64,000 nucleotides of DNA from Candidatus Omnitrophota bacterium (GTDB taxonomy: Bacteria; Omnitrophota; Gorgyraeia; Zapsychrales; JANLHA01), in NCBI GenBank assembly GCA_963662715.1, contig OY759724.1, positions 2,266,662 to 2,330,661 of the forward strand. Direction: 5' to 3'. Below, in pieces: positions 17,764 to 34,960 of this stretch. Position 1 is the first letter of the stretch; every line of letters starts with the position of its first letter. The notes below the pieces were generated by a model. It did not search any database and was not told where the DNA came from. It worked only from the letters and a program-made list of their open reading frames with translations. A program made the translations under genes and the position numbers.

Positions 17764-18840
17764 GTGTATCCTATGCAAGAGAAACTGAAAAAGATTGTTC
17801 AACGTTACCAGGAGTTAGAACAATTATTGGGGGATCCTGATATTATCGCTGAACAGAGCCGGTATCAGAAAATCGCCAAGGAATTTTCTGATATCACTCC
17901 GCTGGTGGAAGCGCATCGCCTTCATTCCGATATCGCCCGGCAGATGACCGATCTGGAACATTTGCTTCAGGAAAAACATGATGCGGAATTTGAAGAACTG
18001 GCCCGGGCCGAACTGAAAGATTTGCGTGTCCGGCTGGAGGAATGTGAGACGAACCTGGATGAACTGCTCAATCCCCGCAAGGAGGAGGCTGACCGGGATT
18101 TAATCATAGAAATCCGGGCCGGGACAGGAGGCCAGGAGGCCAGTCTTTTTGCCGCAGATCTCTACCGCATGTATACAAAATATGCGGAGAAAAAGGGATG
18201 GAAACTGGAGCCGATGAGCTCGCATGAATCCGAGACAGGAGGCTTTAAAGAAGTCGTTTTCGGTATCAGCGGAAAAGGCGCCTCAAAATTGTTGAAGTTT
18301 GAAAGCGGCGCCCATCGCGTGCAGCGGGTTCCGGTGACAGAGGCCTCAGGCCGTATTCATACTTCGGCGGCGACAGTCGCTGTCCTTTTTGAGCCGCAGG
18401 AAGTGGAAGCTCAGATTGATCCTAAAGATTTAAAGATTGATGTCTTCCGCTCATCCGGTCCCGGAGGCCAAAGCGTTAACACGACAGATTCAGCCATCCG
18501 CATTACGCATATCCCGAGCGGGATCGTGGTCATCTGTCAGGACGAACGTTCGCAGCTGAAGAATAAAATGAAGGCTATGCGAGTGTTGCGCGCCCGGCTT
18601 TTAGATAAGATTCAAAGGGAGAATATGGAGAAAGAAACCCAGGACCGGAAAGCCAAAGTCGGGACCGGAGACCGCAGTGAAAAAATCAGAACGTATAATT
18701 ATCCGGACCGCCGGGTCACGGACCACCGCATCGGATTCACGATTCATCAGCTGCCGAATGTGATGGATGGTGATTTGGACGCGATTCTTGACGCCCTGAT
18801 CAAGGCCGAAGCTGATCTGGAAGGAGCAAGCCGTGAATGA
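17764..18840 (+). CDS. prfA: Peptide chain release factor 1.
   Basis: GGQ motif '[23 protein letters not shown]' and the RF1-type tripeptide region '[14 protein letters not shown]'. Confidence 0.92.
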
Positions 18841-19636
18841 ACTGGAATTCATGAAGACATCCATTCTCGGCTGCCGCCGCATTGATCTTTATATGGATCC
18901 TCCTGTCATGTCTCCGGAGCAGAAAACGCTGCTGGAACGCATGAAACAGCGGCGGCTGAACGGAGAGCCGTTGCAATACATCCTGGGAGAAAGTCATTTT
19001 ATGGGATTGAATTTGAACGTCACCCCGAATGTGTTAATTCCCCGCCCGGAAACGGAAATATTAGTTGAAACGGCCTTAGTGATGGCCAAGAGGATATCCC
19101 GCCGGCCGCTTCATATCTTGGACCTGGGAACAGGATCGGGCAATATCGCTGTCAGTTGTGCGGTCTTCCTGGATGATTGTCTGATCGACAGTGTGGATAT
19201 CTCTCCGGAAGCCCTCCGGGTTGCCCTTTATAATGCCGAGCGCCATCAGGTTGAACAGAAGATTTGTTTTATGCACAAGGATATGTTTCTTGTCCTGGGG
19301 AGTGAAGATTTCCAAAGGACATATGATATCGTGATCGCCAACCCGCCGTACATTCCCAGGTCTGCGCTTTCGTCTTTGCCTCCGGATGTCCGGCATGAAC
19401 CGCTCAGGGCTTTAGATGGAGGGGAGGACGGTTTGTCTTATTTGAAGTTTATTATTGAAAACAGTCCGGCCCATATTAAAGAAGGCGGGCTGTTATTGCT
19501 GGAAATAGGAGACGGGCAGTCTAAAATCCTTGAAAAATACCTTGAAATGAATGGACAATTTTGCGACTATGAATTTAAAAAAGACTACAGAAGGACCGAC
19601 AGAATTCTGGTCGCCCGTAGGAATAATTATTCATAA
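18833..19636 (+). CDS. prmC: Release-factor glutamine N5-methyltransferase.
   Basis: '[12 protein letters not shown]' (SAM-binding) and 'IVIANPPYI' (NPPY). It overlaps the end of prfA by 8 nt. Confidence 0.9.
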
Positions 19637-19660
19637 GCCGGAAATTTTGGGAAGACATTT

Positions 19661-20923
19661 ATGGAAAAGTTTATTATTGAGGGAAACAGGCCTTTAAAAG
19701 GCGAAGTCCGCATCAGCGGTTCAAAGAATGCGACTCTACCGGTGCTGGCGGCAACCTTGTTGACCGATGAACCCTGTGTGATCAAAAATGTCCCGTGTCT
19801 CAGGGACACCCTGACGATGATTAAGCTTTTGAAAAGTCTGGGGAAGGACGTCAGCTTTTCAAACAATATCTTGACGATCAAAACGGCGGAGCCGTGTCAG
19901 GGGTTTGCCGATTATGCTCTTGTTTCAACCATGCGGGGATCATTTTGTGTCTTGGGCCCGCTTCTCGCAAAACTTAAAGAAGCCAAAGTGTCCCTGCCGG
20001 GGGGATGTGTTATAGGAGTCAGGCCGGTTGACCTGCATCTGAAAGGGTTGAAGAGTCTGGGGGCTAAAATTGCCATTGAAAACGGTTATGTGTGTGCTCA
20101 AACCAAAGAGCTGCAGGGCCAGCATATTTATCTGGGAGGGGATTTCGGGCCGTCGGTTTTAGCCACGGCTAATGTTATGATGGCCGCGACTCTGGCCAAA
20201 GGCGAGACGGTTATCGCTTCGTCCGCCTGTGAACCGGAAATGGAAGATTTGGCCAACTGCCTTATAGCTATGGGGGCGGATATTACCGGTGTGGGATCCC
20301 CTCGTCTGACCATCAGAGGCGTCAATCAACTGCACGGCGTTGAATATGAAATTATTCCTGACCGCATTGAAGCCGGAACCTACATGCTTCTGGCGGCCGC
20401 GACCAAAGGCAACCTGAGACTCCTTAATGTTAATGCGAGTCATCTTTTGGCTCTGATTGATAAACTCACCGAAGTGGGGGTGAAGTTTAAGATAGAAGGG
20501 GACTCGGTCTGGATCAGAAGCACGACATCTTACGAGCCGACCTCTGTTACCACATATCCTTATCCGGGATTCCCGACAGATCTGCAGGCTCAGTTTATGA
20601 CCTTGATGGCTTTGACGCACGGGGTGAGTATCATTACGGACAAGGTTTTCCCTGACCGGTTTATTCACATCGCGGAATTAAACCGGATGGGGGCGAATAT
20701 CCGCCGGGACGGCAATACGGCTATTATCGAAGGCGTTAAAACCTTGTACGGGGCTCCGGTTATGGCGTCCGACTTGCGGGCTTCGGCCGCTTTGGTCATC
20801 GCGGGGCTGGCCGCTAAAGGGAAGACAGAAATTCACCGCATCTATCACCTGGACCGCGGATATGAAGACCTGGATCAGAAACTGTTGAATTTGGGAGCCA
20901 AAGTCTACCGCCAGCAGGATTAA
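19661..20923 (+). CDS. murA: UDP-N-acetylglucosamine 1-carboxyvinyltransferase.
   Basis: 'ISGSKNATLPVLAATLL', plus an EPSP-synthase-fold gene of the expected length (420 aa). Confidence 0.92.
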   Translation: MEKFIIEGNRPLKGEVRISGSKNATLPVLAATLLTDEPCVIKNVPCLRDTLTMIKLLKSLGKDVSFSNNILTIKTAEPCQGFADYALVSTMRGSFCVLGPLLAKLKEAKVSLPGGCVIGVRPVDLHLKGLKSLGAKIAIENGYVCAQTKELQGQHIYLGGDFGPSVLATANVMMAATLAKGETVIASSACEPEMEDLANCLIAMGADITGVGSPRLTIRGVNQLHGVEYEIIPDRIEAGTYMLLAAATKGNLRLLNVNASHLLALIDKLTEVGVKFKIEGDSVWIRSTTSYEPTSVTTYPYPGFPTDLQAQFMTLMALTHGVSIITDKVFPDRFIHIAELNRMGANIRRDGNTAIIEGVKTLYGAPVMASDLRASAALVIAGLAAKGKTEIHRIYHLDRGYEDLDQKLLNLGAKVYRQQD

Positions 20924-20942: not shown

Positions 20943-21515
20943 ATGGTTTTAGTGATCGACAATTACGATTCCTTTACATATAACCTTGTACAGTATCTGG
21001 GGGCTTTAAAGACAAAGCTGGCCGTTCATCGGAATGATGCGTTGACGCTTGCCAGGATCAAAAAGATGAAACCGGAGAAGATCGTGATTTCTCCGGGACC
21101 TGGCCGGCCGGAAGATGCCGGTATTTCTGTTGATGTCATTAAAGAATTCGCGGAGCAGATCCCGATTTTAGGTGTTTGTCTGGGGCATCAGGCGATCGGT
21201 TATGCCTACGGGGGAAAGATTATCCGGGCGAAAAGCCTGATGCACGGAAAGACCTCAAGTATTACGCACAACGGGGAAGGGCTATTCAGAGATGTGGAAA
21301 ACCCTTTTGAGGCGACACGTTATCATTCTCTCGTTATTGATCCAAAATCATTCCCTGCTTGCCTGGAGATTACGGCCTGGTCTAAAGACCGGGACAAGGA
21401 AATCATGGCCTTGCGGCATAAGAAATTCCCGTTATGGGGCGTTCAGTTTCATCCGGAATCGATTTTGACCCAGTCCGGGAAACAAATATTAGCCAATTTC
21501 TTGAAAATCAAATGA
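20943..21515 (+). CDS. trpG: Anthranilate synthase component II / PABA-synthase-type glutamine amidotransferase.
   Basis: 'MVLVIDNYDSFTYNLVQYLG', the 'GVCLGHQAIG' catalytic Cys, and 'HPES'. Confidence 0.9.
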   Translation: MVLVIDNYDSFTYNLVQYLGALKTKLAVHRNDALTLARIKKMKPEKIVISPGPGRPEDAGISVDVIKEFAEQIPILGVCLGHQAIGYAYGGKIIRAKSLMHGKTSSITHNGEGLFRDVENPFEATRYHSLVIDPKSFPACLEITAWSKDRDKEIMALRHKKFPLWGVQFHPESILTQSGKQILANFLKIK

Positions 21516-22522
21516 AAGAATATATTGAAAAAATCCGCAGGAACGAAAATCTGAGCAGCCGGGAAATTGAAGCCGTCATGGGCCGTATTATGTCGGGAGA
21601 AGCTCCGGACAATCTGGTGGCGGATCTGCTCCTGGCCCTGAATCTGAAAGGCCCTACCATTGATGAAATCACCGGGGCGGCCCGTCTGCTGCAGAAGTTT
21701 TATCTGCCGGTCAAAACAAAACATCCTTTAGTCCTGGATACCTGCGGCACGGGAGGAGATAAAAAGAATACTTTTAACATCTCTACGATTACGGCTTTTG
21801 TCGTTGCCGGGGCGGGGGTTATCGTTGCGAAACACGGCAACCGTTCGGTTTCCAGTAAATGCGGGAGTGCCGATATCCTGGAAGCTTTGGGGGTCAACCT
21901 GGACGTTCAGCATGACCGGTTAGGGACATGTCTGGATGAGGTCGGAATCGCCTTCCTGTTTGCTCAGAAACTGCACCCGGCCATGAAGAACGTGGCGTCC
22001 GTTCGTAAAACGTTGGGGGTTGAGACGATTTTTAATATTTTAGGGCCGCTTATCAACCCTGCCCGGGCGACGCATCAGCTTATGGGGGTCTATTCCCGGG
22101 ACCTTGTTGAACCGCTTGCCAATGTCCTGAGAAATTTAGGTTTAAAAAAGGCGCTGGTGGTTCATGGCCATGACGGTCTGGATGAAGTTTCGACGACGGG
22201 ACAGACCTTTGTCGCGGAGTGGAACGGCCGGGACATCCTGTCCTATGATATCTCTCCCGAAGATTTCGGGATACCCTTATCCAAAGATGAGGATTTAAAA
22301 GGAGGCGACCTTAAGACGAATCTGTTTATTGCTAAAGAAATTCTGGATGGGGTGGGCGGTCCCAGACGGGATGTCGTTGTCTTTAATGCCGCCTATGCTC
22401 TCTATGCGGCGGAGAAAGTCCAAGATATTTCCGAAGGAATTGCTTTAGCTGCGGAATCATTGGATTCCAGGAAAGCCAAGGCTAAATTAGAGACCTTGAT
22501 CGAGTTTACGCAGAAACCGTGA
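21512..22522 (+). CDS. trpD: Anthranilate phosphoribosyltransferase.
   Basis: Start at the ATG at 21512, overlapping the trpG stop as ATGA. 'DTCGTGGDKKNTFNISTITAFVVAGAGVIVAKHGNRSVSS'. Confidence 0.9.
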   Translation: MKEYIEKIRRNENLSSREIEAVMGRIMSGEAPDNLVADLLLALNLKGPTIDEITGAARLLQKFYLPVKTKHPLVLDTCGTGGDKKNTFNISTITAFVVAGAGVIVAKHGNRSVSSKCGSADILEALGVNLDVQHDRLGTCLDEVGIAFLFAQKLHPAMKNVASVRKTLGVETIFNILGPLINPARATHQLMGVYSRDLVEPLANVLRNLGLKKALVVHGHDGLDEVSTTGQTFVAEWNGRDILSYDISPEDFGIPLSKDEDLKGGDLKTNLFIAKEILDGVGGPRRDVVVFNAAYALYAAEKVQDISEGIALAAESLDSRKAKAKLETLIEFTQKP

Positions 22523-22567: not shown

Positions 22568-23356
22568 TTGAATGATTTTTTAGAAAAAATTGTCTTACAT
22601 AAAAGAAGTCTTCTGCGGCGCAAGAAGGCTTTTTTTGATGTTTTAAAAGCCAATGTCGGTTCTGCGAAGATGAACCGCTACGGATTATTTAAAGAACGGA
22701 TTGCCCGGCCCGGACAAATCAACCTCATCGCCGAGATTAAGAAAGCATCGCCGTCCCAGGGGCTGATTCGTACGGATTTTAATGTCACTGAACTGGCGCG
22801 TATTTATGCGGCCCAGGGGGCTGCCGCCATTTCCGTGTTAACGGAAGATAAATATTTTCTGGGTCACCCCCGGTATGTGCGTCTTGTCAGTGAAAATTTT
22901 CCTGTCCCGGTCCTGACGAAAGATTTTATTATTGATGACGTGCAGATTTACGAGGCATTTTTAAGCGGTACCAGCGCAATATTGCTGATTGTTGCCATAT
23001 TGGAGGATGACCAGCTGGTGCGTCTCCAGAATGTGGCCGTGGAACTTGACCTGGATTGTTTGGTCGAAGTTCACAATCAGCAGGAGCTGGACAGGGCCCT
23101 GCAGGCCGGTGCCCAGATTGTCGGAATCAATCATCGCGACCTGCATACGTTTGAAGTTGATCTGGGCGTCAGCCGGGAACTGGTGCCTCAAATTCCCGAT
23201 CACTGTGTCATTGTGGCCGAGAGCGGTGTCCGGACACATGAACATATCAAGATGCTGGAAGCTCTCGGTGTTCACGCTGTTTTGATCGGGGAGACCTTTA
23301 TGCGGGCGGATGATGTCGGCGCCAAAATCAGGGAGGTTATGACAGGGGCAGCATGA
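22568..23356 (+). CDS. trpC: Indole-3-glycerol-phosphate synthase.
   Basis: 'LIAEIKKASPSQGLIR' and a C-terminal 'LIGETFM' region. Confidence 0.9.
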   Translation: MNDFLEKIVLHKRSLLRRKKAFFDVLKANVGSAKMNRYGLFKERIARPGQINLIAEIKKASPSQGLIRTDFNVTELARIYAAQGAAAISVLTEDKYFLGHPRYVRLVSENFPVPVLTKDFIIDDVQIYEAFLSGTSAILLIVAILEDDQLVRLQNVAVELDLDCLVEVHNQQELDRALQAGAQIVGINHRDLHTFEVDLGVSRELVPQIPDHCVIVAESGVRTHEHIKMLEALGVHAVLIGETFMRADDVGAKIREVMTGAA

Positions 23357-23420: not shown

Positions 23421-24041
23421 ATGGTCCGAATTAAAATTTGTGGCATGACGAATTCAAAAGATGCCCTCCAGGCCGCTTCTTGCGGGGCCTGGGCCGTGGG
23501 TTTTATTTTTTACAAGAAAAGTCCCCGCTGCGTCGGAGCTTTTAAAGCGCAGAGAATTATTGATCAACTGCCGCCTTTTGTGACGCCTGTGGGGGTTTTC
23601 GTAAATCAGAAAGAGGGGGCGGTTAAAGAGATCGCCCAATTTTGCGGAATTAAAACCCTGCAGTTCCACGGGGACGAAACGCCTGAATACTGCCGAAGGT
23701 TCAAGAAGGGATATAAAATTATTAAGGCCGTCCGGCTCGGAAATCAAATAGACTTGGATAACCTGAAAAAATATTCCGTTGACGCTCTTTTGTTTGATAC
23801 TTACCAGGAAAAGACCTACGGAGGAACAGGCCAGACTTTCCCTTGGCGGTTAGCTAAGAAAGCCAAAGTTCTGGGTCTGCCGATTATTTTGTCCGGTGGG
23901 CTTGCCCCCCAGAATATCAGAGAAGCCATCGAAGACGTCAAGCCTTATGCGGTCGATGTCTGCAGCGGTGTCGAAAAAAGCCCTGGTCAGAAAAATAAAC
24001 ACGCCTTACAGGAATTTATTGATTTGGTCAAGCTGGCATAA
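23421..24041 (+). CDS. trpF: Phosphoribosylanthranilate isomerase.
   Basis: 'VRIKICGMTNSKDALQAASCGAWAVGFIF' and 'LLFDTYQEKTYGGTGQTF'. Confidence 0.88.
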   Translation: MVRIKICGMTNSKDALQAASCGAWAVGFIFYKKSPRCVGAFKAQRIIDQLPPFVTPVGVFVNQKEGAVKEIAQFCGIKTLQFHGDETPEYCRRFKKGYKIIKAVRLGNQIDLDNLKKYSVDALLFDTYQEKTYGGTGQTFPWRLAKKAKVLGLPIILSGGLAPQNIREAIEDVKPYAVDVCSGVEKSPGQKNKHALQEFIDLVKLA

Positions 24042-24074
24042 CGGACTGACGCTTAAAATTCATCCGTAAAAAAG

Positions 24075-24305
24075 CTATTTAATATAAACTCTAGCCAGTA
24101 AAGAACAGGCTAATATTTTAATAAAGCCATCCTTTTGTTTTAGGGCTTCACAGATTTTAATAGCTTCTGTCTTCGTGTAGTCGCTTTTATCCGGTAATCC
24201 CAAGGAATCAATAATTTCTTTAATAAGTTTTTGGGCGCCTTCAATCCCGATGCCTTGAGCATAGGCATTTACGAGTTCATTTTTTGTTAATGTCGGTTCA
24301 TTCAT
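24075..24305 (-). CDS. Small hypothetical protein (76 aa), co-oriented and immediately downstream of the FIST gene.
   Basis: An ORF with no recognisable motifs; the gap to the FIST gene is 21 nt. Confidence 0.4.
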   Translation of the reverse strand: MNEPTLTKNELVNAYAQGIGIEGAQKLIKEIIDSLGLPDKSDYTKTEAIKICEALKQKDGFIKILACSLLARVYIK

Positions 24306-24326
24306 AAATAGATCTCCGGGACCGAA

Positions 24327-25517
24327 TTATTCAGGTATTAATAACACAACGGTCGTAGTATTGTGAAAGCCGCTTAATTGTCCGGGTATTAAGCCGATTT
24401 CCCCGTAAGTTTCAAACCCTATGATGGGAACGTCGCCAATAACGTTTTTGACGGCTTTCACCCCTTCAAAGAAATCCTCTCCCAGAATCAAAGAACGGCA
24501 GACACAGTCAAAAACAAAAGCCCCGGCCAATTTTGCTCCTCCGCTGGATTTTAGCGCCAGTTCAGCGGCTATCTTGGCTGACTGAATCTGGTCCTCTTTC
24601 GGGCTTTTGCAGATCCTCAGCACAGATCCTTCAATCATCGTGCAGGCAAAATTAAGCGATCCGTCTTCATTGATTGATAAAGGCACGCGTATTTTGTAGT
24701 CGCTGCCGGTTTCTAGGCCTGCTTCAAAACGAATAAGAAACGCGCCAATGTCTTCAGCCGTTTTGAGTTGATCGACATCAACGCCGATTTTTTTCGCTTC
24801 TTCTTTCACGGATTCTTTCCAGACATCAAAAGCTTTTCTCCCGTCGACTTCATAAACCACGTTCCCTTTGGCCTTTGTAATGGTCAGCGGTTCAGAGACC
24901 GGAGAGTGCCCGTGTTTGACTCCGATAGCGACAGGAGTTTTGGACGACACCATACAGACCGTCAGGGCATCGGTCACCGCTTGCTGATTGAGAAAGACTT
25001 TGGTCTCCTTGAATTGCAGGTCATCCCCGGCAGCACCCCCGCTTAACGTGACATCCGCTCCCAGTTCCGATAAGGCCGCCAGAGAAGCTTCTTCGCCGTT
25101 GCCGGCGAGCCCGTCAACATGAAGAATGGCCGATTTGTGGGGGAAGTCATCCGCTGCTTCCGAAAAAGAGGCTTTGGCTTTGCGGATAGCTTCAAGTTGG
25201 TCTTCCTTGAGCCCGGTTCCAAGTCCAGCCGAAAATTTATGCGTATCAGAAGAAATCAGGCCGCAGACAATGCTTTCTTTGTCAGCTTTGGCTTCATTGA
25301 ATTCTCCCGCCGAAGAACTTCCGATCAGGAGAGCATCTCCGACGACTTCTTTGACCCCTTTTAACACATTGTTATAGTTGTATTTGCTGGAAGCATAAAC
25401 AACAGCTAAATCAATTTTGTCTGTCCCCAATTTGTCCAAGGCTTGCTGAGCGACTTGTTTACCGACCGTATAGCTTTCTTCCCCTTTTGCGATCGCAGTA
25501 GAAAATTTGGTGCCCAT
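24327..25517 (-). CDS. FIST-domain sensor protein (FIST N + C), stand-alone with no output domain.
   Basis: 'DLAVVYASSKYNYNNVLKGVKEVVG...LIGSSSAGEF', the FIST_N pattern. The C-terminal half has the FIST_C-like 'GFETYGEIGLIP'. Confidence 0.7.
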   Translation of the reverse strand: MGTKFSTAIAKGEESYTVGKQVAQQALDKLGTDKIDLAVVYASSKYNYNNVLKGVKEVVGDALLIGSSSAGEFNEAKADKESIVCGLISSDTHKFSAGLGTGLKEDQLEAIRKAKASFSEAADDFPHKSAILHVDGLAGNGEEASLAALSELGADVTLSGGAAGDDLQFKETKVFLNQQAVTDALTVCMVSSKTPVAIGVKHGHSPVSEPLTITKAKGNVVYEVDGRKAFDVWKESVKEEAKKIGVDVDQLKTAEDIGAFLIRFEAGLETGSDYKIRVPLSINEDGSLNFACTMIEGSVLRICKSPKEDQIQSAKIAAELALKSSGGAKLAGAFVFDCVCRSLILGEDFFEGVKAVKNVIGDVPIIGFETYGEIGLIPGQLSGFHNTTTVVLLIPE

Positions 25518-25873
25518 GTAGTTCTCCTTGTAATAATTTGAAAATAAACGGATATCCTTCCTTTATTTTAGTAGATTCCTTTAAAAATAAAATATTTAAT
25601 TGAATTATTTCTCGCGAATCCCGGGAGGGGGGAGGACGTTTTCTGCCAGCGGGAAGGATATGTTCCAAGGCCTGCCTGAAATTGAAAGAATTTAATATTT
25701 GCGATAGTTCTTCAGAAAATGAGTTGCTATTCTTATTCTCGAATGATTTAATAAACATTTAAGTCTTTGCCTGCCCAGAATGCGCATGCCGTATTTAAAC
25801 ATAAGTTTCGGCTTGTCCCGTCATGATTGCATGAGGAGATGAGACGGCCGTCTTTATGAGGAGATGAACAAAA

Positions 25874-27376
25874 ATGAGTTCTTTTAACGTTATATGCCAG
25901 CGAGTTGACAGTTTCTTGAGAGATAAGACTTGTCATAAACTCATTATCCTTGCAGGGATATTTTTCCGTTTGACCCAATATTTTTATAACCGCTCCTTAT
26001 GGTTTGACGAAGCTTATGTCGCCAATAAGCTCATAAAATTTTCTCTTTCAGAATTAATCCAGGGGCCTTTCCCGGAGAAATCCTTGGCTTACCCTTTTGG
26101 CTTTTCCTTTATAGAAAAAATAATGGTTGTTTTGTTCGGGAGCCACGAATATGTTTTTCGTTTTTTTCCTTTGTTTTACGGGGTGATATCCCTGATCCTT
26201 TTTTATGCCCTTATTATCCACGTCCTATCTCCCAGAGCCAGATTTGTTGCCTTATGCCTGTTTGCTTTTTCCCCTTCATTAATTCTGTATTCGACAGAGT
26301 TGAAACCTTATTCGGGGGATGTCGCCTTTGTGTTAATGTTTATGGTGGCTATAAAATGGTTCCTTGATAACAAATTAACAAAACGATCGGTGTCGTTCGT
26401 GAGCCTTTTAGGCGGTATTCTCATATGGTTCTCTCATCCCATAATATTTGTTTTGGCGGGGGCAGGGATAGTTCTGTCCATTATTAAAATAAAAGAGAGG
26501 AAGGAGCCGTTGTGGCGTCCTTTGGCCTTTGTCCTTTTTTCCTGGATGTCCAGTTTTGCCCTGAATTATTTCTTTGTCCTGAGGGTTTTCTCCCGGGGGG
26601 AGTATCTTACGGATTATTGGGCGAAGTTTTTTTTGCCCGTGTTTCCGGTAAAACTGGTCAACCTGATTTTTCATTACACCATTTTTCTTGATGTGTTCCG
26701 TTATCCGGTCAGCGCGAAATTCCCCTTTTTGTGTAGTATTTTATTTCTTGCCGGTTGTGTGAAAATGTTTTACCGTGAACGGCGGGACTTTTTCCTTCTC
26801 ATCAGCCCTATCGTGATCACTCTATTGGCATCGGTTCTGCACATATATCCTTTCTTTGAACGTTTAATATTGTTCCTTGTCCCTTTTTATATCCTCTTTG
26901 TTGCGGAAGGGGCTGACGGTGTTATCGAAAGAATTAAATATAAAAATATTTGCCCTCTGCTCATGTTGCTCTTTGTCCTGCCGGCATTTTTTACCGAATG
27001 TTCACGTGTGGGAGACCCTTCTTTTTATCGTTATGAGGAAAGCCGAGAGGTGGTCCGGTATATGGTGGAACATAAACAAGCGGGGGATTATTTTATTTTG
27101 CCGGATAAATCCCAAGCGGCTTTTCGATTTTATTCTGGCCGAATGAATTTCGTCCCGTCCGCCAGCGGCATTAAGGTGTTGTCCTGCACGCATGAACTGC
27201 AATCCGTAATTAAGTCTGTATCCGGCAGAGACCGCTTCTGGTTGTTTTTGGCCCATGTGGGCAAAAAGGATAAAGAATTTATGCTGGAGATGATGCATCA
27301 TCATGCCGAACTTGTTGATTCCTTTTTTCAGTCGGGTGCCCGAGCTTACCTTTTTCAGATAGAACCCGATCCGTAA
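25874..27376 (+). CDS. Polytopic membrane protein, putative GT-C-fold glycosyltransferase (ArnT/PMT-like).
   Basis: About 12 hydrophobic segments, and an N-terminal region like the first extracytoplasmic loop of GT39/83 ('NRSLWFDEAYVANK'). Confidence 0.55.
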   Translation: MSSFNVICQRVDSFLRDKTCHKLIILAGIFFRLTQYFYNRSLWFDEAYVANKLIKFSLSELIQGPFPEKSLAYPFGFSFIEKIMVVLFGSHEYVFRFFPLFYGVISLILFYALIIHVLSPRARFVALCLFAFSPSLILYSTELKPYSGDVAFVLMFMVAIKWFLDNKLTKRSVSFVSLLGGILIWFSHPIIFVLAGAGIVLSIIKIKERKEPLWRPLAFVLFSWMSSFALNYFFVLRVFSRGEYLTDYWAKFFLPVFPVKLVNLIFHYTIFLDVFRYPVSAKFPFLCSILFLAGCVKMFYRERRDFFLLISPIVITLLASVLHIYPFFERLILFLVPFYILFVAEGADGVIERIKYKNICPLLMLLFVLPAFFTECSRVGDPSFYRYEESREVVRYMVEHKQAGDYFILPDKSQAAFRFYSGRMNFVPSASGIKVLSCTHELQSVIKSVSGRDRFWLFLAHVGKKDKEFMLEMMHHHAELVDSFFQSGARAYLFQIEPDP

Positions 27377-27454
27377 TATTATCTGAGCGTTACGAATCAG
27401 CAGGTTTGAGAGTGCCCCGGCGTCTTGTCTCGGCCGGCATTATATGTTATATTT

Positions 27455-27698
27455 CAAGTAAGCCGATAAAGGTAAACTTGAGGAAACTCGAGGACACAAA
27501 ACTCCAGACCTAAGTTATTCGAGAACCGGGAGGGCCCTGAAGTTCGGGGCAGGCGTAGACGGTGTGTGGTTATTAGGATGATAAGGTGGCTGAGTTGCCG
27601 TGAGCTGGTTGTGGGGTTAACATCCCGTCTTTATCGGCTTGTTTTCTTTAATACCAACCCTTATTGTTAAAACTCCGTTAACAGTAAGGGTTTTTTTT
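27455..27698 (+). ncRNA. Candidate structured small RNA of about 240 nt, class unknown. It has a 12-bp long-range closing helix and ends in a canonical intrinsic terminator.
   Basis: 27460-27471 'aagccgataaag' pairs perfectly with 27628-27639 'ctttatcggctt'. An inner helix pairs 'ggatg' (27556) with 'catcc' (27621). The terminator at 27658-27698 has a 12/13-bp stem followed by T8. Confidence 0.3.
27658..27698 (+). terminator. Rho-independent terminator.
   Basis: 'cccttattgttaa-aactccg-ttaacagtaaggg' followed by 'tttttttt'. Confidence 0.75.
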
Positions 27699-27921
27699 AT
27701 CCCGGATCCGCAAGGATTGAAGACGTCCGGGCATCAAAGGCGTGCTCTCGCTTCCATGGCAAACCCGTTGAATAACTTTGAGATAAGCCGTTTTTACGGG
27801 CGCCTGTCCTGTCCTCTGCCCGGCACCCGGACGCCATCACGGAGCAAAGACAAGACTTTTTCGTCCAATCGTTAATGAAATCCTATCATATATAAAAAAA
27901 TATGTTATAATATCACCTCAA

Positions 27922-28227
27922 ATGAGCCAACAAAAACTAATACGAGTTTATCAAGATCTCGATTTGAAAGATATAAAAGAGCATCTGCTTATTTACGGGG
28001 ACTTGTCCGGGGCCTGCGCTAACTGCCAAACTGTTGATATCAAATTGAACCAGGCCAAGTGTCCCGATTGCCAAACGGAATTCAAGTATATTGCCTTCCG
28101 AAACATTAAGAATCATTATCCTAAAGTCCATCATATAAAGACAGAGCGCCCGGATATCCTGATTGTTGATCATGATGACTACAAGCGTATGATGGGAGCT
28201 TTGAAAGCCGAGGAGTTTTTGAAATGA
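27922..28227 (+). CDS. Small zinc-ribbon protein (CxxC...CxxC), translationally coupled to the M20 peptidase gene.
   Basis: 'CANCQTV...CPDCQTEF'. Its stop overlaps the next gene's start as ATGA. Confidence 0.6.
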   Translation: MSQQKLIRVYQDLDLKDIKEHLLIYGDLSGACANCQTVDIKLNQAKCPDCQTEFKYIAFRNIKNHYPKVHHIKTERPDILIVDHDDYKRMMGALKAEEFLK

Positions 28228-29369
28228 TTCATAAGGACCGGTTGGTCACGTTAACTCAAAAGGTCATAAGCATTAATTCTGAAAATCCCCCTGGGCGGGA
28301 ACAAAAGTTGGCCAAATTTATCGCCCAGGATATGAAATCATTGGGCCTGCAGGTTAAATGTGTGTCTTTTGCCTCCAAACGGCCTAACATCATTGCGACT
28401 TTGAAGGGAACCTGGCCGAGAAAAAAGGCCCGGCAGAAAGCCCTGCTTATCACGCCGCATTTTGATACGGTGCCTATCGGCCAGGGATGGACGCAGGATC
28501 CGCTGGGGGGGCGCATTATCCGTGGCCGGATTTATGGCCGGGGAGCCACGGACGATAAAGGGAACTTGGCGTGCTGTATGGAAGTCATGCGCAGTCTGGT
28601 CGAGGACCGTGTTAAGCTGAACCGGGATCTGGTCATGGCGGCAACGGTTGACGAAGAAACGGGCAGCCATCAGGGTATCGTGCCGCTGCTGGACAAGAAG
28701 ATCCTTCAGCCGCATACGGCCGTGATCCTGGATTCTGATGACTTTAACACCATTATTGCTCAGAAGGGGTTGTTGCATTGCCGGGTGCAGATTTTCGGGA
28801 AAAAGGCGCACGGGGCGTATAACTGGCAGGGAATCAATGCGATCGAGGTCGCCGCCAGAATTATTGTTAAGTTGAAAAAACACAAATTCAAATTTTCCAA
28901 GCATGTTCTGCTTCAGCCCCCGACTGTGAATGTCGGAACGATCAGGGGCGGGGATAAAGTCAATATGGTCGCCGATCATTGTGAGTTGAGCCTGGATGTC
29001 CGTTTCCTCCCGGGCATGAAAAGCGCCGTGTTGTTGCAAGATATAAGGCACATGATACAGACGGAAACGAAACGGTTTAAAATTGTCGTGGACGACCTTC
29101 AGCAGCCCTATGAAATTGATGCCGCGCATCCTCTGGTAGATACGTATGTGCAGACCGCCCGTTCTTTGGGCATCCGCACGTCCCTTAAGGGCAGTGAAGG
29201 AGCCACCGTGATTACGTTTTTTAAGAAACATAACATTCCGGCTTTCGCAACAGGGTACGGAGCTCAGGGGACAGCGCACACAACGGATGAGTACGCCAGA
29301 GTATCCACCCTCCATAAAGGGGCCCGCCTGCTGGAAAAATTTATAAAGGACTTTGACCAGAAATTATGA
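28224..29369 (+). CDS. M20-family metallopeptidase (ArgE/DapE-like deacylase).
   Basis: 'ITPHFDTVPIG', 'GRGATDDKGNLA' (metal-binding Asp) and 'DEETGS', the M20 signature triad. Confidence 0.85.
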   Translation: MIHKDRLVTLTQKVISINSENPPGREQKLAKFIAQDMKSLGLQVKCVSFASKRPNIIATLKGTWPRKKARQKALLITPHFDTVPIGQGWTQDPLGGRIIRGRIYGRGATDDKGNLACCMEVMRSLVEDRVKLNRDLVMAATVDEETGSHQGIVPLLDKKILQPHTAVILDSDDFNTIIAQKGLLHCRVQIFGKKAHGAYNWQGINAIEVAARIIVKLKKHKFKFSKHVLLQPPTVNVGTIRGGDKVNMVADHCELSLDVRFLPGMKSAVLLQDIRHMIQTETKRFKIVVDDLQQPYEIDAAHPLVDTYVQTARSLGIRTSLKGSEGATVITFFKKHNIPAFATGYGAQGTAHTTDEYARVSTLHKGARLLEKFIKDFDQKL

Positions 29370-30100
29370 TAAAAAGATATGAAATAATTTTCGGCGCACT
29401 GTTGCTGTTGATGCTTTTTAACCCGGGTTACGGACGGGGCGAAACGATGAAACCACTCCCTTTTAAGACGGGTGAAGAAATAAGATATAACGTTAAGAAA
29501 TTTGGCGTCAAGGCCGGCACCGCGACATTGCGTTTCGAAGGGCAGACACAGTTGAACGGAAAGAGCGCCTATTTGATCGTTTTCACGGTCAAGGGCTTGA
29601 ACTTTTTTGATGAGGAACGGATCTATGTCGATCCTTACAGCTTTTTGCCGATACAGGTGGACAGGGATGTTAATGTCTTCGGGAAAGAGGAAAAGATCAC
29701 CGAGGTTTATGATCATCAGGCAGGACAGGTTGTTTTAACAAAAAAGAAAGGCGACAGGGAAGTTCAGGAGACGATAGAAAAACAGGGTAAGATTGAGAAT
29801 ATTTACGGTTTTATCTACCGGTACAGAAGAGATGGTTCGTTCGGCGAAGGAGAGACAATAAAGTTATCTCTCCCCACGAAGGATATGTCTTTTCAACTGG
29901 AAGGCAAAGAGAAAATTTCGTTAGGGCGGAAACAATATGAGGCCTATATTATGGAGAGCCATCCCAGACAATTCCGGGTTTGGTTTGATGAAAGCCCCAA
30001 GAAGATTCCGTTAAGAATTGACGGGGCCATGGGGTTTGGCCAAACATCAATGGTTTTGGCTCAGTATGATGAAAGCCGGCCTGAACAGGTTAAAGAATAA
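29366..30100 (+). CDS. Secreted DUF3108-like protein.
   Basis: Signal peptide, then 'GEEIRYNVKKFGVKAGTATLRF', reminiscent of DUF3108. The start overlaps the M20 gene's stop by 4 nt. Confidence 0.45.
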   Translation: MIKRYEIIFGALLLLMLFNPGYGRGETMKPLPFKTGEEIRYNVKKFGVKAGTATLRFEGQTQLNGKSAYLIVFTVKGLNFFDEERIYVDPYSFLPIQVDRDVNVFGKEEKITEVYDHQAGQVVLTKKKGDREVQETIEKQGKIENIYGFIYRYRRDGSFGEGETIKLSLPTKDMSFQLEGKEKISLGRKQYEAYIMESHPRQFRVWFDESPKKIPLRIDGAMGFGQTSMVLAQYDESRPEQVKE

Positions 30101-30112
30101 AAGGAGAAGAAA

Positions 30113-31036
30113 ATGGATTTAAAAGGGACGATTGTTTTTTCTTCTGGCAAATCGGGGGATTACGATATCTTTACCTTGGACTTGGATTCCCAAAGAGTGG
30201 ACCAGCTGACGACAGGGGATTGCTGGAACGATTGTCCCAAATGGTCTCCGGACGGCCAGCATATTGTTTTTATCTCCAACCGGACCGGCACTCCGGAAAT
30301 CTGGGTCATGGATGCCGAAGGGAAGGATGAACGGCGTATCACGCAACAGGACCGTTGGCATAACACCCCGGCCTGGTCACCGGACGGCAGGAAGATTGTT
30401 TTTTGCGCGAATTATGACGGCAATGTCAATATTTATACGATGAGCCTGGACGGTTCGGAACGCCGGCAGATTACAAATTATGAAGCGATGGATTATACGC
30501 CGCAATTTTCTCCCGACGGCAGTAAAATTATCTTCACGTCAAAGAAATCCGGGAGCGCCGACATTTGGGCCTATCATTGTCCCTCCGGCCAGATCGATCA
30601 GCTGACGTCTTATGAAGGCCGTGATTATGCCCCGACGTATTCGCCTGACGGGACAAGAATCGCTTTCATATCCGGCTTGCTGGGGGAGCAGGGAGAGGAA
30701 AATTTGGAAGTTTACCTTATGGACGCTCAAGGCGAAAACGTGCAGCGTATTACCCGGAATCTCGGTTCCGAGCGTCACGTGACATGGTCCCCCTGTGGAA
30801 ACTATCTCATTTATACCTCCAGCAAGAAGACATCTGCCGCAGAACGTCTTATGGTGGTTGATCTGGAGAAGATGAAAACCGAAGCTCTGAAATTCGACCG
30901 GGCAGAACTGGAAGCAGAAATTAAGTCCCCGCCGTTAGCCTACGGGATTTTTTCTTTATTGCCCGAGGGGATCCGGAGGAAATTCTACCCGGATTACTAT
31001 TTCGGTTCAGAGCGTTTTCCTGATTGGAAATATTAG
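30113..31036 (+). CDS. Protein with TolB-like / PD40 beta-propeller repeats.
   Basis: Six or more repeats of the '(W/F)SPDG..I(V/A)F.S' pattern. Confidence 0.8.
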   Translation: MDLKGTIVFSSGKSGDYDIFTLDLDSQRVDQLTTGDCWNDCPKWSPDGQHIVFISNRTGTPEIWVMDAEGKDERRITQQDRWHNTPAWSPDGRKIVFCANYDGNVNIYTMSLDGSERRQITNYEAMDYTPQFSPDGSKIIFTSKKSGSADIWAYHCPSGQIDQLTSYEGRDYAPTYSPDGTRIAFISGLLGEQGEENLEVYLMDAQGENVQRITRNLGSERHVTWSPCGNYLIYTSSKKTSAAERLMVVDLEKMKTEALKFDRAELEAEIKSPPLAYGIFSLLPEGIRRKFYPDYYFGSERFPDWKY

Positions 31037-31080
31037 TCGTGTAAATAATTTATTATCAGGGTTGTGAACATAAGGAGAAT

Positions 31081-31617
31081 ATGATGGCTAATTTTAATCA
31101 AATTTTTCAGAAATTGAATGAAGATTATAACGTGACCATGCAGAAAGACAGCGGCAATGCCTATAGCAAATTATCAACTATTTTTGAGGAATTAGACGCT
31201 TTCCTGCGGGAGTATGTCCAGGATTTAACCATGGACCAGATGAAAGCTATTGTCAAGAAACTGGAAAGCGGCGAGACCCTGAGTCCTGATGAAAAAGAAC
31301 AGATCCGTTTATGGATTGTCGGCGACGCGGACTATTATGCCAAAATGGAGAATAATGTGGAAGACTGGAAACAAGAGCTCAAAAGAATCATGGGAGAGAT
31401 TGGTGCTCTACAAACCGAGAATCCGGACATTGTTACAGCCTGTAAACTGCGGGGGTTGTTCCGGGACGGCGCCCGGGTCATCGCGGATTTGTTTTTTTAT
31501 GCCGAACAGCAGGACCGTTTGAACAAGTTTAACAACGCTATTCAGGAGATAGACACGGAAGAGCGCGGGCTTTTGATCGGTTTGCTGGAGCAAAAGATGA
31601 AGTCGCCGGATTTCTAG
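31081..31617 (+). CDS. Hypothetical protein (178 aa).
   Basis: An ORF with a coding-like composition and no recognisable motif. Confidence 0.5.
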   Translation: MMANFNQIFQKLNEDYNVTMQKDSGNAYSKLSTIFEELDAFLREYVQDLTMDQMKAIVKKLESGETLSPDEKEQIRLWIVGDADYYAKMENNVEDWKQELKRIMGEIGALQTENPDIVTACKLRGLFRDGARVIADLFFYAEQQDRLNKFNNAIQEIDTEERGLLIGLLEQKMKSPDF

Positions 31618-31662
31618 AGTCCTTCCTTTTAAAAATATAAAAAATTGTGAGCAGGACAAAAT

Positions 31663-32844
31663 ATGATGAAAAGCAAGACGAAAAAAGGATATTTTAATGC
31701 TTTCGGCGGGCAATATGTGCCGGAAACTTTAATGGCTTTGCTGGAGGATTTAGAGAAGACATACCGCCGTTTTAAAAAAGACCGGTCTTTTAAAAGAGAG
31801 TTTGCTTTTTTCTTGCGGGAATATGCCGGCCGGCCGACCAACCTCTACTATGCCCGGCGTTTGAGCGCTCATTTAAAAAAACTTAAAGTCTATCTCAAAC
31901 GGGAAGATCTCCTTCACACGGGCGCGCATAAAATCAATAACACTTTAGGGCAGATTCTGGTGGCCAAGGAGATGGGGAAGACCAGGATTATCGCCGAGAC
32001 CGGAGCCGGGCAGCACGGCGTTGCCACTGCGACGGCCTCAGCGCTTTTTGGATTGAAGTGCGAAATTTATATGGGGGTGGAAGATATCCAGCGCCAGGCC
32101 CTGAATGTCTTTCGTATGCGTTTGCTGGGCGCGCAGGTTAACCCGGTTACGAGCGGTTCCCAAACCCTTAAAGACGCCATGAACGAAGCTATACGTGATT
32201 GGGTGACCAATGTCCATGATACGTTTTATATCATTGGTTCCGTTGCCGGGCCGCATCCGTATCCTGTGATGGTGAGAGATTTTCAGGCGGTAATCGGGCG
32301 TGAAGCCAAGCGGCAGTTTTGCAGGATGGAACAGGGTTTGCCGGATTATGTTTTGGCCTGCGTGGGCGGGGGCAGTAACGCTATGGGCCTGTTTCATGCT
32401 TTTTTTAAGGATAAGTCTGTTAAAATGATCGGAGTGGAGGCTGCCGGCCTGGGTATCCATTCCGGGCAGCATGCGGCCCCGTTATCCGAAGGAGCGGTCG
32501 GTGTTTTGCACGGCAGCAAGAGCGCTTTGCTGCAAACGAAAGACGGACAGATCAAGATCGCCCATTCTATTGCGGCCGGGTTGGATTATCCCGGAGTCGG
32601 GCCGGAACATGCTTATTATCAAAGTATCGGCCGGGCGCGGTATGAGGCTGTCGATGACGCCAAGGCGATCAAGGGGTTGAAGCTGTTGTCAGAGACAGAG
32701 GGGATTATTCCTGCTCTGGAAACGGCTCATGCCATCGGATATCTGGAAACACTGGCGCGCCAGCAGAAAAAACAGGCGACCGTCATCGTATGTCTTTCCG
32801 GAAGAGGGGACAAGGATGTCGGGACAATTAAGGATCTTGTTTAG
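31663..32844 (+). CDS. trpB: Tryptophan synthase beta chain.
   Basis: '[12 protein letters not shown]' and 'HTGAHKINN' (PLP-Lys region), followed by 'GGGSNAMG'. Confidence 0.93.
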
Positions 32845-32871
32845 CCCCTGTTCGGGGTTGGAGTATTCGGA

Positions 32872-33678
32872 ATGAACAGAATTGACCTGAAATTTCAAGA
32901 GTTGAAAAGAAACAAACAGAAAGCCTTTATCGCTTTTGTAACGGCGGGAGATCCGCATTTAAAGATAACGGAACAGCTTGTTTATGCTTTGGAAGACAGC
33001 GGTGTGGATATGATTGAGCTGGGCGTCCCGTTCTCTGATCCTTTGGCAGACGGCCCGACCATTCAGGCCTCTTCGTACCGGTCCCTGCAGAAGGGCACGA
33101 CGTTGAAGGGGATTTTTCAGTGTGTGTCACAGATCAGGAAACGGTCCGCGATCCCGATCGCGTTGATGACCTACTACAATCCGGTCTTTCATTTTGGGGA
33201 AAAAGCGTGTGTTCGCGCTTGCCAGGAGGCCGGAGTCGATGGGCTGATTATTCCGGATCTTCCTCCTGAGGAAGCGGGCACTTTGCTCTCCGCGGCCCGT
33301 CCCGGCGGAATTTCAACGGTTTTTTTTGTCGCTCCGACCACTCGTCCGGAACGCATGCGTATGATTGCCAAGGTGTCTACCGGATTCATATATTATGTTT
33401 CTGTGGCCGGAGTGACCGGGGCCCGTCAAATGCTGCCGCGCGACCTTATTGCCCACGTTCAGGCTGTCAAACAGACCAGCTGGAAACCGGTTTGTGTGGG
33501 GTTCGGGATTTCAACGGCGCAGCAGGTCCGGCAGATAAGCCGGATAGCTGATGGCGTGATTGTGGGGAGTGCTATTATTAAAGAAGTTGAAAAACATCAG
33601 GGGAAAAAGGATCTTGTCCCCAGGGTCAGCCGGATGGTTGCCGGTCTTACCGCCCCATTAAGGATAAAAAGGAGATAA
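32872..33678 (+). CDS. trpA: Tryptophan synthase alpha chain.
   Basis: 'FVTAGDP', 'MIELGVPFSDPLADGP' and 'YYVSVAGVTG'. Confidence 0.92.
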   Translation: MNRIDLKFQELKRNKQKAFIAFVTAGDPHLKITEQLVYALEDSGVDMIELGVPFSDPLADGPTIQASSYRSLQKGTTLKGIFQCVSQIRKRSAIPIALMTYYNPVFHFGEKACVRACQEAGVDGLIIPDLPPEEAGTLLSAARPGGISTVFFVAPTTRPERMRMIAKVSTGFIYYVSVAGVTGARQMLPRDLIAHVQAVKQTSWKPVCVGFGISTAQQVRQISRIADGVIVGSAIIKEVEKHQGKKDLVPRVSRMVAGLTAPLRIKRR

Positions 33679-33685
33679 ATGAAAG

Positions 33686-34960
33686 ATGTATCAGAAGGAT
33701 GTCTTAAAAAATGGTATACGCATTGCGACGCATGAGATGAAAGACCGAGAGAGCCTTTCGATTGGGGTGTGGATCGGCGTTGGCGGCCGTTACGAAGAAG
33801 ATGCTGTTAAAGGGGCCGCGCATTTTTTGGAACATCTTGCGTTTAAGGGCAGCGCAGCTTATTCTTGCGAAGAAATCAAAGGGCGTATCGAGGGCGTCGG
33901 GGGGAGCCTGAACGCTTTTACGGCTGAAGAACAGACGTGTTACTATGCGAAAATTCCTGCCCGATACGTCGGCTCGACCCTGGATGTTCTCCTGGACATT
34001 GTCTTTCATCCCCGCATGAGAGCCCCGGATATCGAGCGGGAACGGACTGTCATCCTGGAAGAAATTAAGATGTACCGGGACCTGCCGCAGTATTTTGTCA
34101 TCGACTTGCTGGAGGGTATGATGTGGCCCGGGCATCCATTGGGGAAGAATCTGGCCGGCACCCCGGAATCGGTAACACAGATAACCCGTAAGCAACTTAG
34201 GGATTTTCATCGGCAACATTATGCCCCTTTGAATATCGTTGTCGCAGCCTGCGGAAAAGTTCAGCACGATTCTTTTGTCGATATGGTCCGGAAGAAACTT
34301 GCCTCCTGCCCTGAGGCGTCTAAAGTGCCCTGTTTAAAAGCTGAGGAGGGGCCGCGGCCTTCGGCGGTCACGTTCTTCGAACGGCCCATAGAGCAGATGC
34401 ATTTAGCGCTGGGGATGCCGGGGTATTGCGATCATCATAAAGATAAATACGTTCTTAATTTGTTGCATGTGATTCTCGGAGGGAACATGTCGAGCCGTCT
34501 TTTTAATGAGGTGAGGGAAAAAAGAGGCTTGGCGTATTCGATATCGACGTCCGTTAAGACGCTTTCGGATACAGGAATGTTTATGGTCAGGGCCGGGGTT
34601 GACACCCAGAAACTCGTACAGGCTGTGAAGCTGATCGTCAGCGAGCTGGATAAATTGCGCCGCCGGGGCGTGTCTTTGCCCGAATTCCAGAGGGCCAAGG
34701 ATTATTACAAAGGTCAGGTTCTGATCGGCCTGGAAGATACTCTGGACCACATGATTTGGCTGGGGGAATCGGTTTGTACGCGTAACCGTATCCGGACGTT
34801 AAACGAAATTATGCGTAAGATCAATCGAATTAAGCCTGAAGACGTTAACCGCATTGCCAAAGATGTTCTAAATAAGCAGTCTTATAACCTGGCTTTGGTC
34901 GGCCCTATTTCAGAAGGACAAAAAGGGGAAATTACTCATATCATCGGTCCGGCTGTCTGA
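33686..34960 (+). CDS. M16-family zinc peptidase (pitrilysin-like).
   Basis: The inverted zinc motif 'HFLEHLAFKG' (HxxEH), at the length expected for M16B. Confidence 0.85.
   Translation: MYQKDVLKNGIRIATHEMKDRESLSIGVWIGVGGRYEEDAVKGAAHFLEHLAFKGSAAYSCEEIKGRIEGVGGSLNAFTAEEQTCYYAKIPARYVGSTLDVLLDIVFHPRMRAPDIERERTVILEEIKMYRDLPQYFVIDLLEGMMWPGHPLGKNLAGTPESVTQITRKQLRDFHRQHYAPLNIVVAACGKVQHDSFVDMVRKKLASCPEASKVPCLKAEEGPRPSAVTFFERPIEQMHLALGMPGYCDHHKDKYVLNLLHVILGGNMSSRLFNEVREKRGLAYSISTSVKTLSDTGMFMVRAGVDTQKLVQAVKLIVSELDKLRRRGVSLPEFQRAKDYYKGQVLIGLEDTLDHMIWLGESVCTRNRIRTLNEIMRKINRIKPEDVNRIAKDVLNKQSYNLALVGPISEGQKGEITHIIGPAV

Follow-up and report, generated by a model that had tools for sequence, protein, structure and literature searches.

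Why does a block of unrelated genes stand in the middle of a tryptophan (trp) gene cluster, and for how long has it been there? The question is raised by a stretch of 64,000 nucleotides (nt) from a Candidatus Omnitrophota bacterium (contig OY759724.1; the whole stretch is called the window below), in which trpGDCF and trpBA are set apart by several kilobases (kb). An initial annotation of this DNA proposed either an insertion into an ancestral trpGDCFBA operon or an integration hotspot. Comparison with related loci indicates that the split has probably been passed down vertically within a large clade of Candidatus Omnitrophota and is not the outcome of a recent insertion. The gap also contains a conserved aptamer RNA of the cyclic di-GMP (c-di-GMP) family, for which two related roles are considered below.

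The arrangement itself was established from the open reading frame (ORF) listing together with Pfam and NCBIfam matches. On the plus strand the order is murA-trpG-trpD-trpC-trpF, then eight non-trp genes, then trpB-trpA, with 7.6 kb between trpF and trpB that include two minus-strand genes. The trp genes that are present keep their canonical relative order (G-D-C-F...B-A), all on the plus strand. Overlapping start and stop codons (ATGA, 21512-21515) join trpG to trpD, trpC and trpF are adjacent with a 64-nt gap, and the break lies between trpF and trpB; the last intervening gene, encoding a hypothetical protein of 178 residues (hyp178), stops at 31617, 45 nt before the trpB ATG at 31663. No trpE was detected in the window by tblastn with six TrpE proteins from other loci, and none was found in the Omnitrophota loci described below. 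The seven genes of a whole-pathway trpEGDCFBA operon are accordingly not contiguous here, as trpE is absent from the 64 kb and the trpF-trpB junction is interrupted. All of this agrees with the initial annotation, whose calls for the intervening genes were likewise borne out and whose candidate small RNA proved to match the c-di-GMP-I aptamer of Rfam; the one correction concerns the spacer between the murA TAA stop (ending at 20923) and the trpG ATG (20943), which is 19 nt and not 20.

The age of the split was approached through its relatives. A TrpF search of species-representative genomes assigned the window to Candidatus Omnitrophota, with best matches of 73-76% identity and with some metagenome-assembled genomes mislabelled as Planctomycetales, and all window proteins were mapped onto 80 retrieved loci. 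The table of relatives comprises 37 loci with TrpF identities down to about 50%, sampled by their similarity to the window; L007 and L008 end too early for the trpF-trpB junction to be judged. An uninterrupted trpF-trpB junction was not found in these 37 loci. Instead, two genes precede trpB in every related Omnitrophota locus that extends to it, one for a 101-residue protein with a CxxC...CxxC pattern (zn101) and one for an M20 deacylase. The backbone of the clade can be written as rho-(rpmE)-prfA-prmC-murA-trpGDCF-[slot 1]-zn101-M20-[DUF3108 with or without others]-trpBA-M16-rsfS-argS-recJ, where the two slots vary in content.

This backbone is recognizable at several depths of divergence. 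The closest relatives, L001 and L002, reproduce the window order prfA-prmC-murA-trpGDCF-s76(-)-FIST(-)-zn101-M20-DUF3108-PD40-hyp178-trpB-trpA-M16, lacking only the gene for a PMT_2-like membrane protein, and most of their genes are 60-86% identical to those of the window. The whole set s76-FIST...zn101-M20-DUF3108-PD40-hyp178 occurs in these two and in L094 and L099, at 63-81% amino-acid identity. In L106-L108, with TrpF identities of 56-63% and contigs of up to 1.6 Mb, the upstream half reads polA-GT-coaE-rho-rpmE-prfA-prmC-murA-trpGDCF and the downstream half consists of a PolB-exo-like gene and/or a gene for a TPR or giant protein, followed by zn101-M20-(YdjM-like)-DUF3108-(hyp177)-trpBA-M16. 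L105 shows rho-rpmE-prfA-prmC-murA-trpGDCF, a PAS protein gene and then zn101-M20-YdjM-DUF3108-DUF2059-LemA-M48-trpBA-M16-rsfS-argS, and L100-L102 show murA-trpGDCF, a gene for a giant protein of 1878-2107 residues, zn101-M20, two ORFs and trpBA-M16-rsfS-argS-recJ. The order prfA-prmC-murA ahead of trpG is shared with L001-L004, L007, L008, L096 and L105-L108, and the order trpBA-M16-rsfS-argS is kept in L099-L107. In L103 and L104 (Omnitrophica WOR_2 GWA2_47_8), zn101-M20-DUF3108-trpBA-M16-rsfS-argS is intact and trpF is not found within 10 kb upstream, so the trp cluster is broken further in that lineage. There, trpGDCF is replaced upstream of zn101 by genes for an RHS/Tc-toxin-like giant protein, a PilZ protein and a PhdYeFM/ParE toxin-antitoxin pair (L103, 1-6237).

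The same context was reached from the RNA side. An exact pattern derived from the aptamer retrieved 19 loci from metagenome contigs, and in all those with mappable neighbours the match follows trpF, with no gene or one or two genes between, and precedes zn101-M20(-DUF3108(-PD40-hyp178))-trpB; two short contigs (L085 and L088) had no mappable neighbour. Outside the lineage the picture differs: in the outgroup loci L010-L080 (Desulfobacterota, Nitrospirota, Acidobacteriota, Bacillota, Bacteroidota and others) trpF and trpB are mostly adjacent, usually within trpEGDCFBA. Because the junction is contiguous in these outgroups, genes did enter an ancestral trpF-trpB junction, and the split is old. 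Judged by gene order, then, the interruption is derived relative to other phyla and common within the Omnitrophota lineage.

Variation is concentrated in the two slots. Between trpF and the aptamer or zn101, slot 1 holds nothing, exo223 (PolB-exo-like), exo223 with a TPR gene, a PAS gene, s76 with FIST or, in the window only, s76 with FIST and the PMT_2-like gene; among the relatives the s76-FIST pair is confined to L001, L002, L083, L094 and L099. Between M20 and trpB, slot 2 holds DUF3108 alone or with YdjM-like, hyp178, PD40 or DUF2059-LemA-M48 genes, or else two unrelated ORFs. Giant genes of 1.9-2.1 thousand codons stand between the riboswitch and zn101 in L100-L102, L108 and L006. Slot 1 often carries genes for signalling-type proteins, FIST/NosP-like in the window, L001 and L002 and PAS in L105 (8435-9781) and L089, and L103 has its PilZ gene (5215-5553) a few kb upstream of zn101; these neighbours may be a coincidence or may mark a local c-di-GMP signalling neighbourhood.

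Could the block nevertheless be a recent accessory island, or the product of an integration hotspot between trpF and trpB? The strand switch at 24075-25517 fits such an origin, as do the lower guanine-plus-cytosine (GC) content of 24-28 kb (0.41-0.45; 0.453 for the block against 0.482 for the window) and the differing contents of the slots. The PMT_2-like gene fits it too, being the sole block gene specific to this genome, with no homologue in any retrieved locus, a GC content of 0.42 and a synonymous-codon score about two standard deviations under the window mean. Set against this, the core genes stand in the same order in relatives that are only 50-80% identical in amino-acid sequence, and for the M20, PD40, hyp178, DUF3108 and FIST genes the GC content, the GC content at third codon positions (GC3) and the synonymous-codon scores fall inside the spread of the other window genes. 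Lower composition scores are confined to s76 and zn101, both short, and to the T-rich PMT_2-like gene. Nor were the hallmarks of integration seen: the ORFs of 24042-31662 contain no integrase, recombinase or transposase domain by Pfam or NCBIfam, the window has no tRNA or tmRNA gene, and comparison of 24042-24075 with 31618-31662, as well as of the surroundings of the PMT_2-like gene, gave only chance-level short matches in direct or inverted orientation. We therefore regard a recent insertion of the block as very unlikely. The initial annotation had itself held that intervening genes of normal composition, shared by all relatives, would speak for an ancient and stable arrangement, and this is what was found for the core zn101-M20-(DUF3108), which is common to all relatives that reach that far. 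Its insertion into an ancestral trpGDCFBA order thus stands as an ancient event and falls as a recent one; the idea of a recent event is left standing only for the PMT_2-like gene and, as a hotspot in the loose sense of gene turnover, for the two slots.

A second explanation for the position of these genes is functional: zn101, the M20 deacylase and the DUF3108 protein might take part in, or assist, tryptophan metabolism, a possibility that was raised for genes inserted in trp operons by Kagan et al. (2008, PMC2395257). Their linkage to trpBA survives deep divergence, even where trpGDCF lies more than 10 kb off (L103 and L104), and the zn101 stop and M20 start overlap as ATGA in most loci, consistent with translational coupling. 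The zn101 family is restricted to Omnitrophota (54 clusters, all of about 100 residues and at least 53% identical) and has four invariant cysteines; its AlphaFold model is confident (pLDDT 93) and had no Foldseek match in the PDB. It looks like an orphan fold and is probably a partner of the M20 deacylase. Against a role in the pathway, no known step needs a deacylase, the M20 protein matches the general ArgE/DapE family (TIGR01910), the N-terminus of the DUF3108 protein resembles a signal peptide, and zn101 is without a detectable structural relative. The slot neighbours YdjM-like, LemA and M48 (PD40/TolB-like here), together with the M16 peptidase gene after trpA, look related to the envelope or to proteolysis, and the region as a whole is an array of assorted housekeeping genes on one strand. 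A metabolic role of this kind thus seems a distant prospect to us. Two considerations still count against vertical inheritance of the gene order throughout the clade: beyond a sample drawn by similarity, trpF and trpB may be contiguous in other lineages of Omnitrophota, and the lasting linkage of zn101-M20-DUF3108 to trpBA might reflect a functional link after all.

How the two halves are expressed was examined from spacing and signals. The genes prfA-prmC-murA (17764-20923) form the head of a co-directional array that runs into trpG, and neither a promoter nor a leader was seen in the 19 nt between murA and trpG. With gaps of this size or overlaps and no leader, trpGDCF would most simply be co-transcribed with prfA-prmC-murA and form the end of that unit. 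Downstream, zn101 would begin a separate, probably leaderless operon at an extended -10 box that abuts its ATG (TATGTTATAAT in the window). A TGTTATAAT or TGTTATACAAT box stands 7-10 nt ahead of the zn101 ATG in nearly all loci, with no Shine-Dalgarno sequence, and it accompanies zn101 also in loci where a giant gene lies between the aptamer and zn101 (L100 and L108). The exact motif TATGTTATAWT has only two sites in the 64 kb, this one and another at 27443, with a one-mismatch match at 48075. From zn101 to the M16 peptidase gene (27922-34960) the successive gaps are -4, -4, 12, 44, 45, 27 and 7 nt, and no strong terminator-like site was found in that interval. Since no gap exceeds 45 nt and no strong terminator intervenes, trpBA is most simply placed distal to zn101-M20, and is probably the tail of that operon; trpB has an AGGA Shine-Dalgarno sequence and no conserved promoter motif upstream, and in L005, L090, L106 and L107 the gene directly adjoins or overlaps DUF3108. 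As tails of larger units, neither trpGDCF nor trpBA would be under tryptophan-specific control. Rfam gave no T-box or other trp leader in the window, where TRAP-type triplet repeats were not specifically searched. The strand bias of the window is extreme, only the two genes at 24075-25517 out of about 45 probable genes being on the minus strand, with a cumulative GC skew that rises monotonically; co-orientation alone is for this reason weak evidence of an operon in this genome.

The initial annotation had reported no leader or attenuator in the cluster, which holds upstream of trpG and fails inside the split, where a riboswitch-type RNA with terminators is found. The sole Rfam match in the window is to c-di-GMP-I (GEMM-I, RF01051) at 27461-27602, which scores 63 bits where the gathering threshold is 35. 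At least 28 distinct loci among the relatives have an aptamer here, with orthologues scoring 38.9-71.2 bits; Rfam places it after trpF in L001, L002, L004, L005, L006 and L106-L108, and the copies of L100-L102 were found by regular expression, an extra insert having dropped their Rfam score under the threshold. Such extra inserts of 50-90 nt are present in some aptamers (L100, 3985-4215; L108, 10697-10920; L089, L092 and L098), between P2 and the AAAAC junction or in the hairpin ahead of the 3' strand of P1. As the inserts push copies below the gathering score, Rfam under-counts this aptamer family.

An alignment of 23 distinct orthologous copies (A2) allowed the architecture to be compared. 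The promoter, cTTGtc followed by 17 nt and TATGTTATATT, ends about 7 nt ahead of the RNA, and its TTG and TGTTAT...T positions are invariant or nearly so. An invariant 5' strand, AAGCCGATAAAG, pairs with an invariant 3' strand, CTTTATCGGCTT, about 165 nt downstream and closes the whole domain as a long-range P1 helix of 12-14 base pairs (bp), formed in the window by 27459-27472 with 27628-27641 according to both the minimum free energy fold and the RNAalifold consensus. The ten inner pairs of P1 are kept in 22-23 of the 23 sequences and the two outermost in 17-22; the sequence of P1 is invariant and hence uninformative for covariation. Among the 37 consensus pairs, 11 show compensatory double changes, every one of them in the inner helices (P2 and P3). 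Where the RNA aligns with the part of the family consensus that contacts the ligand, its sequence looks canonical, and binding of c-di-GMP is predicted on that basis. Directly after P1 comes a T-run (24 of 27 loci), and 30-80 nt further on a second hairpin with a T-run, of variable sequence (about 21 of 27). Two other places were considered and set aside. The segment 25636-25672 resembles the aptamer promoter at about 67% over 30 nt and was treated as a chance match. A second aptamer-like element at 7441-7472 on the plus strand, where two near matches to the P1 motif AAGCCGATAAAGG (two mismatches each) stand 19 nt apart in a 600-nt intergenic region, was dropped since it had no Rfam match at E<=1 other than a chance snoRNA.

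These features suggest two related roles. As far as sequence can tell, the aptamer has both its own promoter and a terminator directly after it, as would a stand-alone RNA. Transcription from this promoter would mostly end at the U-run of P1 or at the back-up terminator, giving a discrete c-di-GMP-binding RNA of about 185-240 nt with its ends clamped by P1; any read-through past the terminators would add c-di-GMP-dependent transcription into zn101...trpBA. We tentatively propose, giving it slightly less than an even chance, that the aptamer at the trp junction is either a discrete, merRNA-like sponge RNA with P1 as its terminator or an internal c-di-GMP attenuator of zn101-M20-...-tryptophan synthase. 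A stronger claim would make the riboswitch a working cis-regulator that gates zn101-M20-DUF3108-...-trpBA, from its own promoter or by read-through from trpF, so that tryptophan synthase is tied to c-di-GMP and P1 with its U-run acts as a ligand-stabilised terminator (an OFF switch). The conserved U-run would suit such a switch, and so would the placement of the aptamer, which never changes strand and immediately precedes zn101 or the gene standing in for it (L004, L005, L006, L081, L082, L100-L102 and L108). What makes us doubt it is that a perfect P1 of 12-14 bp should form with or without ligand, and that no conserved alternative (anti-terminator) pairing between the P1 strands and the second terminator was found; such a pairing was rejected because the terminator varies in sequence and the candidates are interrupted by mismatches. 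In addition, a longer read-through transcript would be a poor template for translating zn101, which has its own promoter and lacks a Shine-Dalgarno sequence, and a literature search turned up no precedent joining c-di-GMP riboswitches to trp genes. Gating of the whole downstream unit is, on balance, improbable, if less so than a recent insertion or a metabolic role.

Some observations pull the other way and bear on the proposal of a sponge or attenuator. In L005 the aptamer is followed by mem147-DUF3108-trpB-trpA, with overlapping genes and no second terminator between. In L108 the giant ORF begins about 25 nt past the terminator, which is hard to explain without read-through; the aptamer of this locus may therefore truly regulate in cis. 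The promoter scan used a sigma-70 consensus that may not fit Omnitrophota, and where the operons begin and end, whether zn101 is leaderless and how well the terminators work are all predictions from sequence. Coordinates of the features discussed are collected in Table 1.

Table 1. Positions of genes and regulatory features around the split trp cluster, numbered from the first nucleotide of the window.
Feature	Position	Strand	Evidence or remark
prfA	17764-18840	+	Pfam
prmC	18833-19636	+	Pfam
murA	19661-20923	+	Pfam EPSP_synthase, 333 bits
trpG	20943-21515	+	GATase; TIGR00566, 265 bits
trpD	21512-22522	+	Pfam/NCBIfam
trpC	22568-23356	+	Pfam/NCBIfam
trpF	23421-24041	+	Pfam/NCBIfam
s76, 76-residue ORF	24075-24305	-	slot 1
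FIST_N+FIST_C sensor-like protein	24327-25517	-	NosP-like at 118 bits, below cut-off
PMT_2-like (GT-C-like) polytopic membrane protein	25874-27376	+	Pfam PF13231, 20.6 bits, E 5.8e-4; below the Pfam cut-off of 26.1
Putative aptamer promoter	27425-27453	+	-35-like CTTGTC, 17-nt spacer, extended -10 TATGTTATATT; promoter scan
c-di-GMP-I aptamer including P1	27459-27641	+	RF01051 (Rfam span 27461-27602); insert of about 58 nt
Tandem intrinsic-terminator-like signals	27642-27700	+	T-rich tract TGTTTTCTTT after P1, then 15-bp hairpin 27656-27692 and T8
Extended -10 box TATGTTATAAT	27901-27912	+	9 nt before the zn101 ATG, no Shine-Dalgarno; probable promoter
zn101, CxxC...CxxC 101-residue protein	27922-28227	+	ORF and family comparison
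M20 ArgE/DapE-family deacylase	28224-29369	+	TIGR01910 match
DUF3108 protein	29366-30100	+	domain match; signal-peptide-like N-terminus
PD40/TolB-like propeller	30113-31036	+	domain match
hyp178, 178-residue hypothetical protein	31081-31617	+	ORF
trpB	31663-32844	+	TIGR00263, 622 bits
trpA	32872-33678	+	Pfam/NCBIfam
M16 peptidase	33686-34960	+	after trpA; rsfS, argS and recJ further downstream

Away from the trp cluster, a giant ORF of 3072 codons occupies 48646-57864 on the plus strand, with a raised GC content of 0.53-0.58 and a strong skew of A over T. The only Pfam matches in it are repetitive and of a low-complexity type; the one to PrkA reaches 184 bits, but no individual stretch of it passes. 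Its biased composition probably also explains the long antisense ORFs at 50457-56822, which would then be artefacts.

Taken as a stable, inherited signature of Omnitrophota, the interrupted trp cluster would be unsuitable as a marker of islands or hotspots. The array rho-prfA-prmC-murA-trpGDCF...zn101-M20...trpBA-M16-rsfS-argS could instead serve as a synteny marker for this poorly known phylum. The apparent lack of dedicated control and the unlinked trpE bear on whether tryptophan synthesis in these bacteria begins at chorismate or only at a later intermediate. The part most deserving of experiments is the aptamer RNA, with a promoter and terminators of its own and a fixed genomic address. 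If true, either the sponge or the attenuator role would put the GEMM-I fold to a new use in a phylum whose nanobacteria are largely uncultured and possibly host-dependent, and the sponge would be a second and far more widespread case of a merRNA-like RNA.

The arrangement can be set beside several known systems. The nearest in gene order are the split-pathway trp operons and the trp operons with inserted non-trp genes that have been documented (Xie et al. 2003, as cited in Kagan et al. 2008, Genome Biol 9:R20, PMC2395257). Like these, the present cluster has its canonical order and orientation interrupted by unrelated genes, no dedicated regulator and conserved non-trp flanks. In the classical split, however, EGDC is separated from FBA and trpF-B-A stay together, whereas here the break falls between F and B, trpE is unlinked and five to eight genes intervene; the clade-wide conservation of zn101-M20 and the c-di-GMP aptamer RNA inside the Omnitrophota gap have no counterpart in the classical cases. 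In the aromatic supraoperon of Bacillus subtilis, trp genes are nested with genes of the aromatic pathway and regulated by TRAP. The two systems are alike in that trp genes form part of longer units with other functions, but their partners in the window serve translation, the cell wall and the envelope, without any visible control specific to trp.

As a member of RF01051, the aptamer is supported by a score far above the gathering threshold, compensatory changes in P2 and P3 and a conserved core that matches the family consensus. It departs from typical members in its insert and in the additional hairpin that precedes the 3' strand of P1, in the sequence-invariant P1 followed by a U-run, in the second terminator and separate promoter that precede the next ORF, and in its context inside a trp cluster. 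The closest parallel to a stand-alone form is merRNA of Bdellovibrio bacteriovorus, a massively expressed 445-nt c-di-GMP riboswitch RNA with no conserved downstream ORF that was proposed to store or sponge c-di-GMP, and for which no conservation beyond the Bdellovibrio lineage was found (Karunker et al. 2013, PLoS One 8:e61850, PMC3627812). Both are c-di-GMP aptamers apparently made as discrete RNAs and not as ORF leaders, in our case as predicted from the promoter and terminator signals. Unlike merRNA, the Omnitrophota RNA has a conserved operon, with its own probable promoter, within 60-230 nt downstream, and is conserved across many Omnitrophota. The literature search also found no paper on riboswitches in Omnitrophota. 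Set against the split trp operons on record, the Omnitrophota cluster thus differs in the break point between trpF and trpB, the unlinked trpE, the clade-wide zn101-M20 pair and the c-di-GMP aptamer at the junction.

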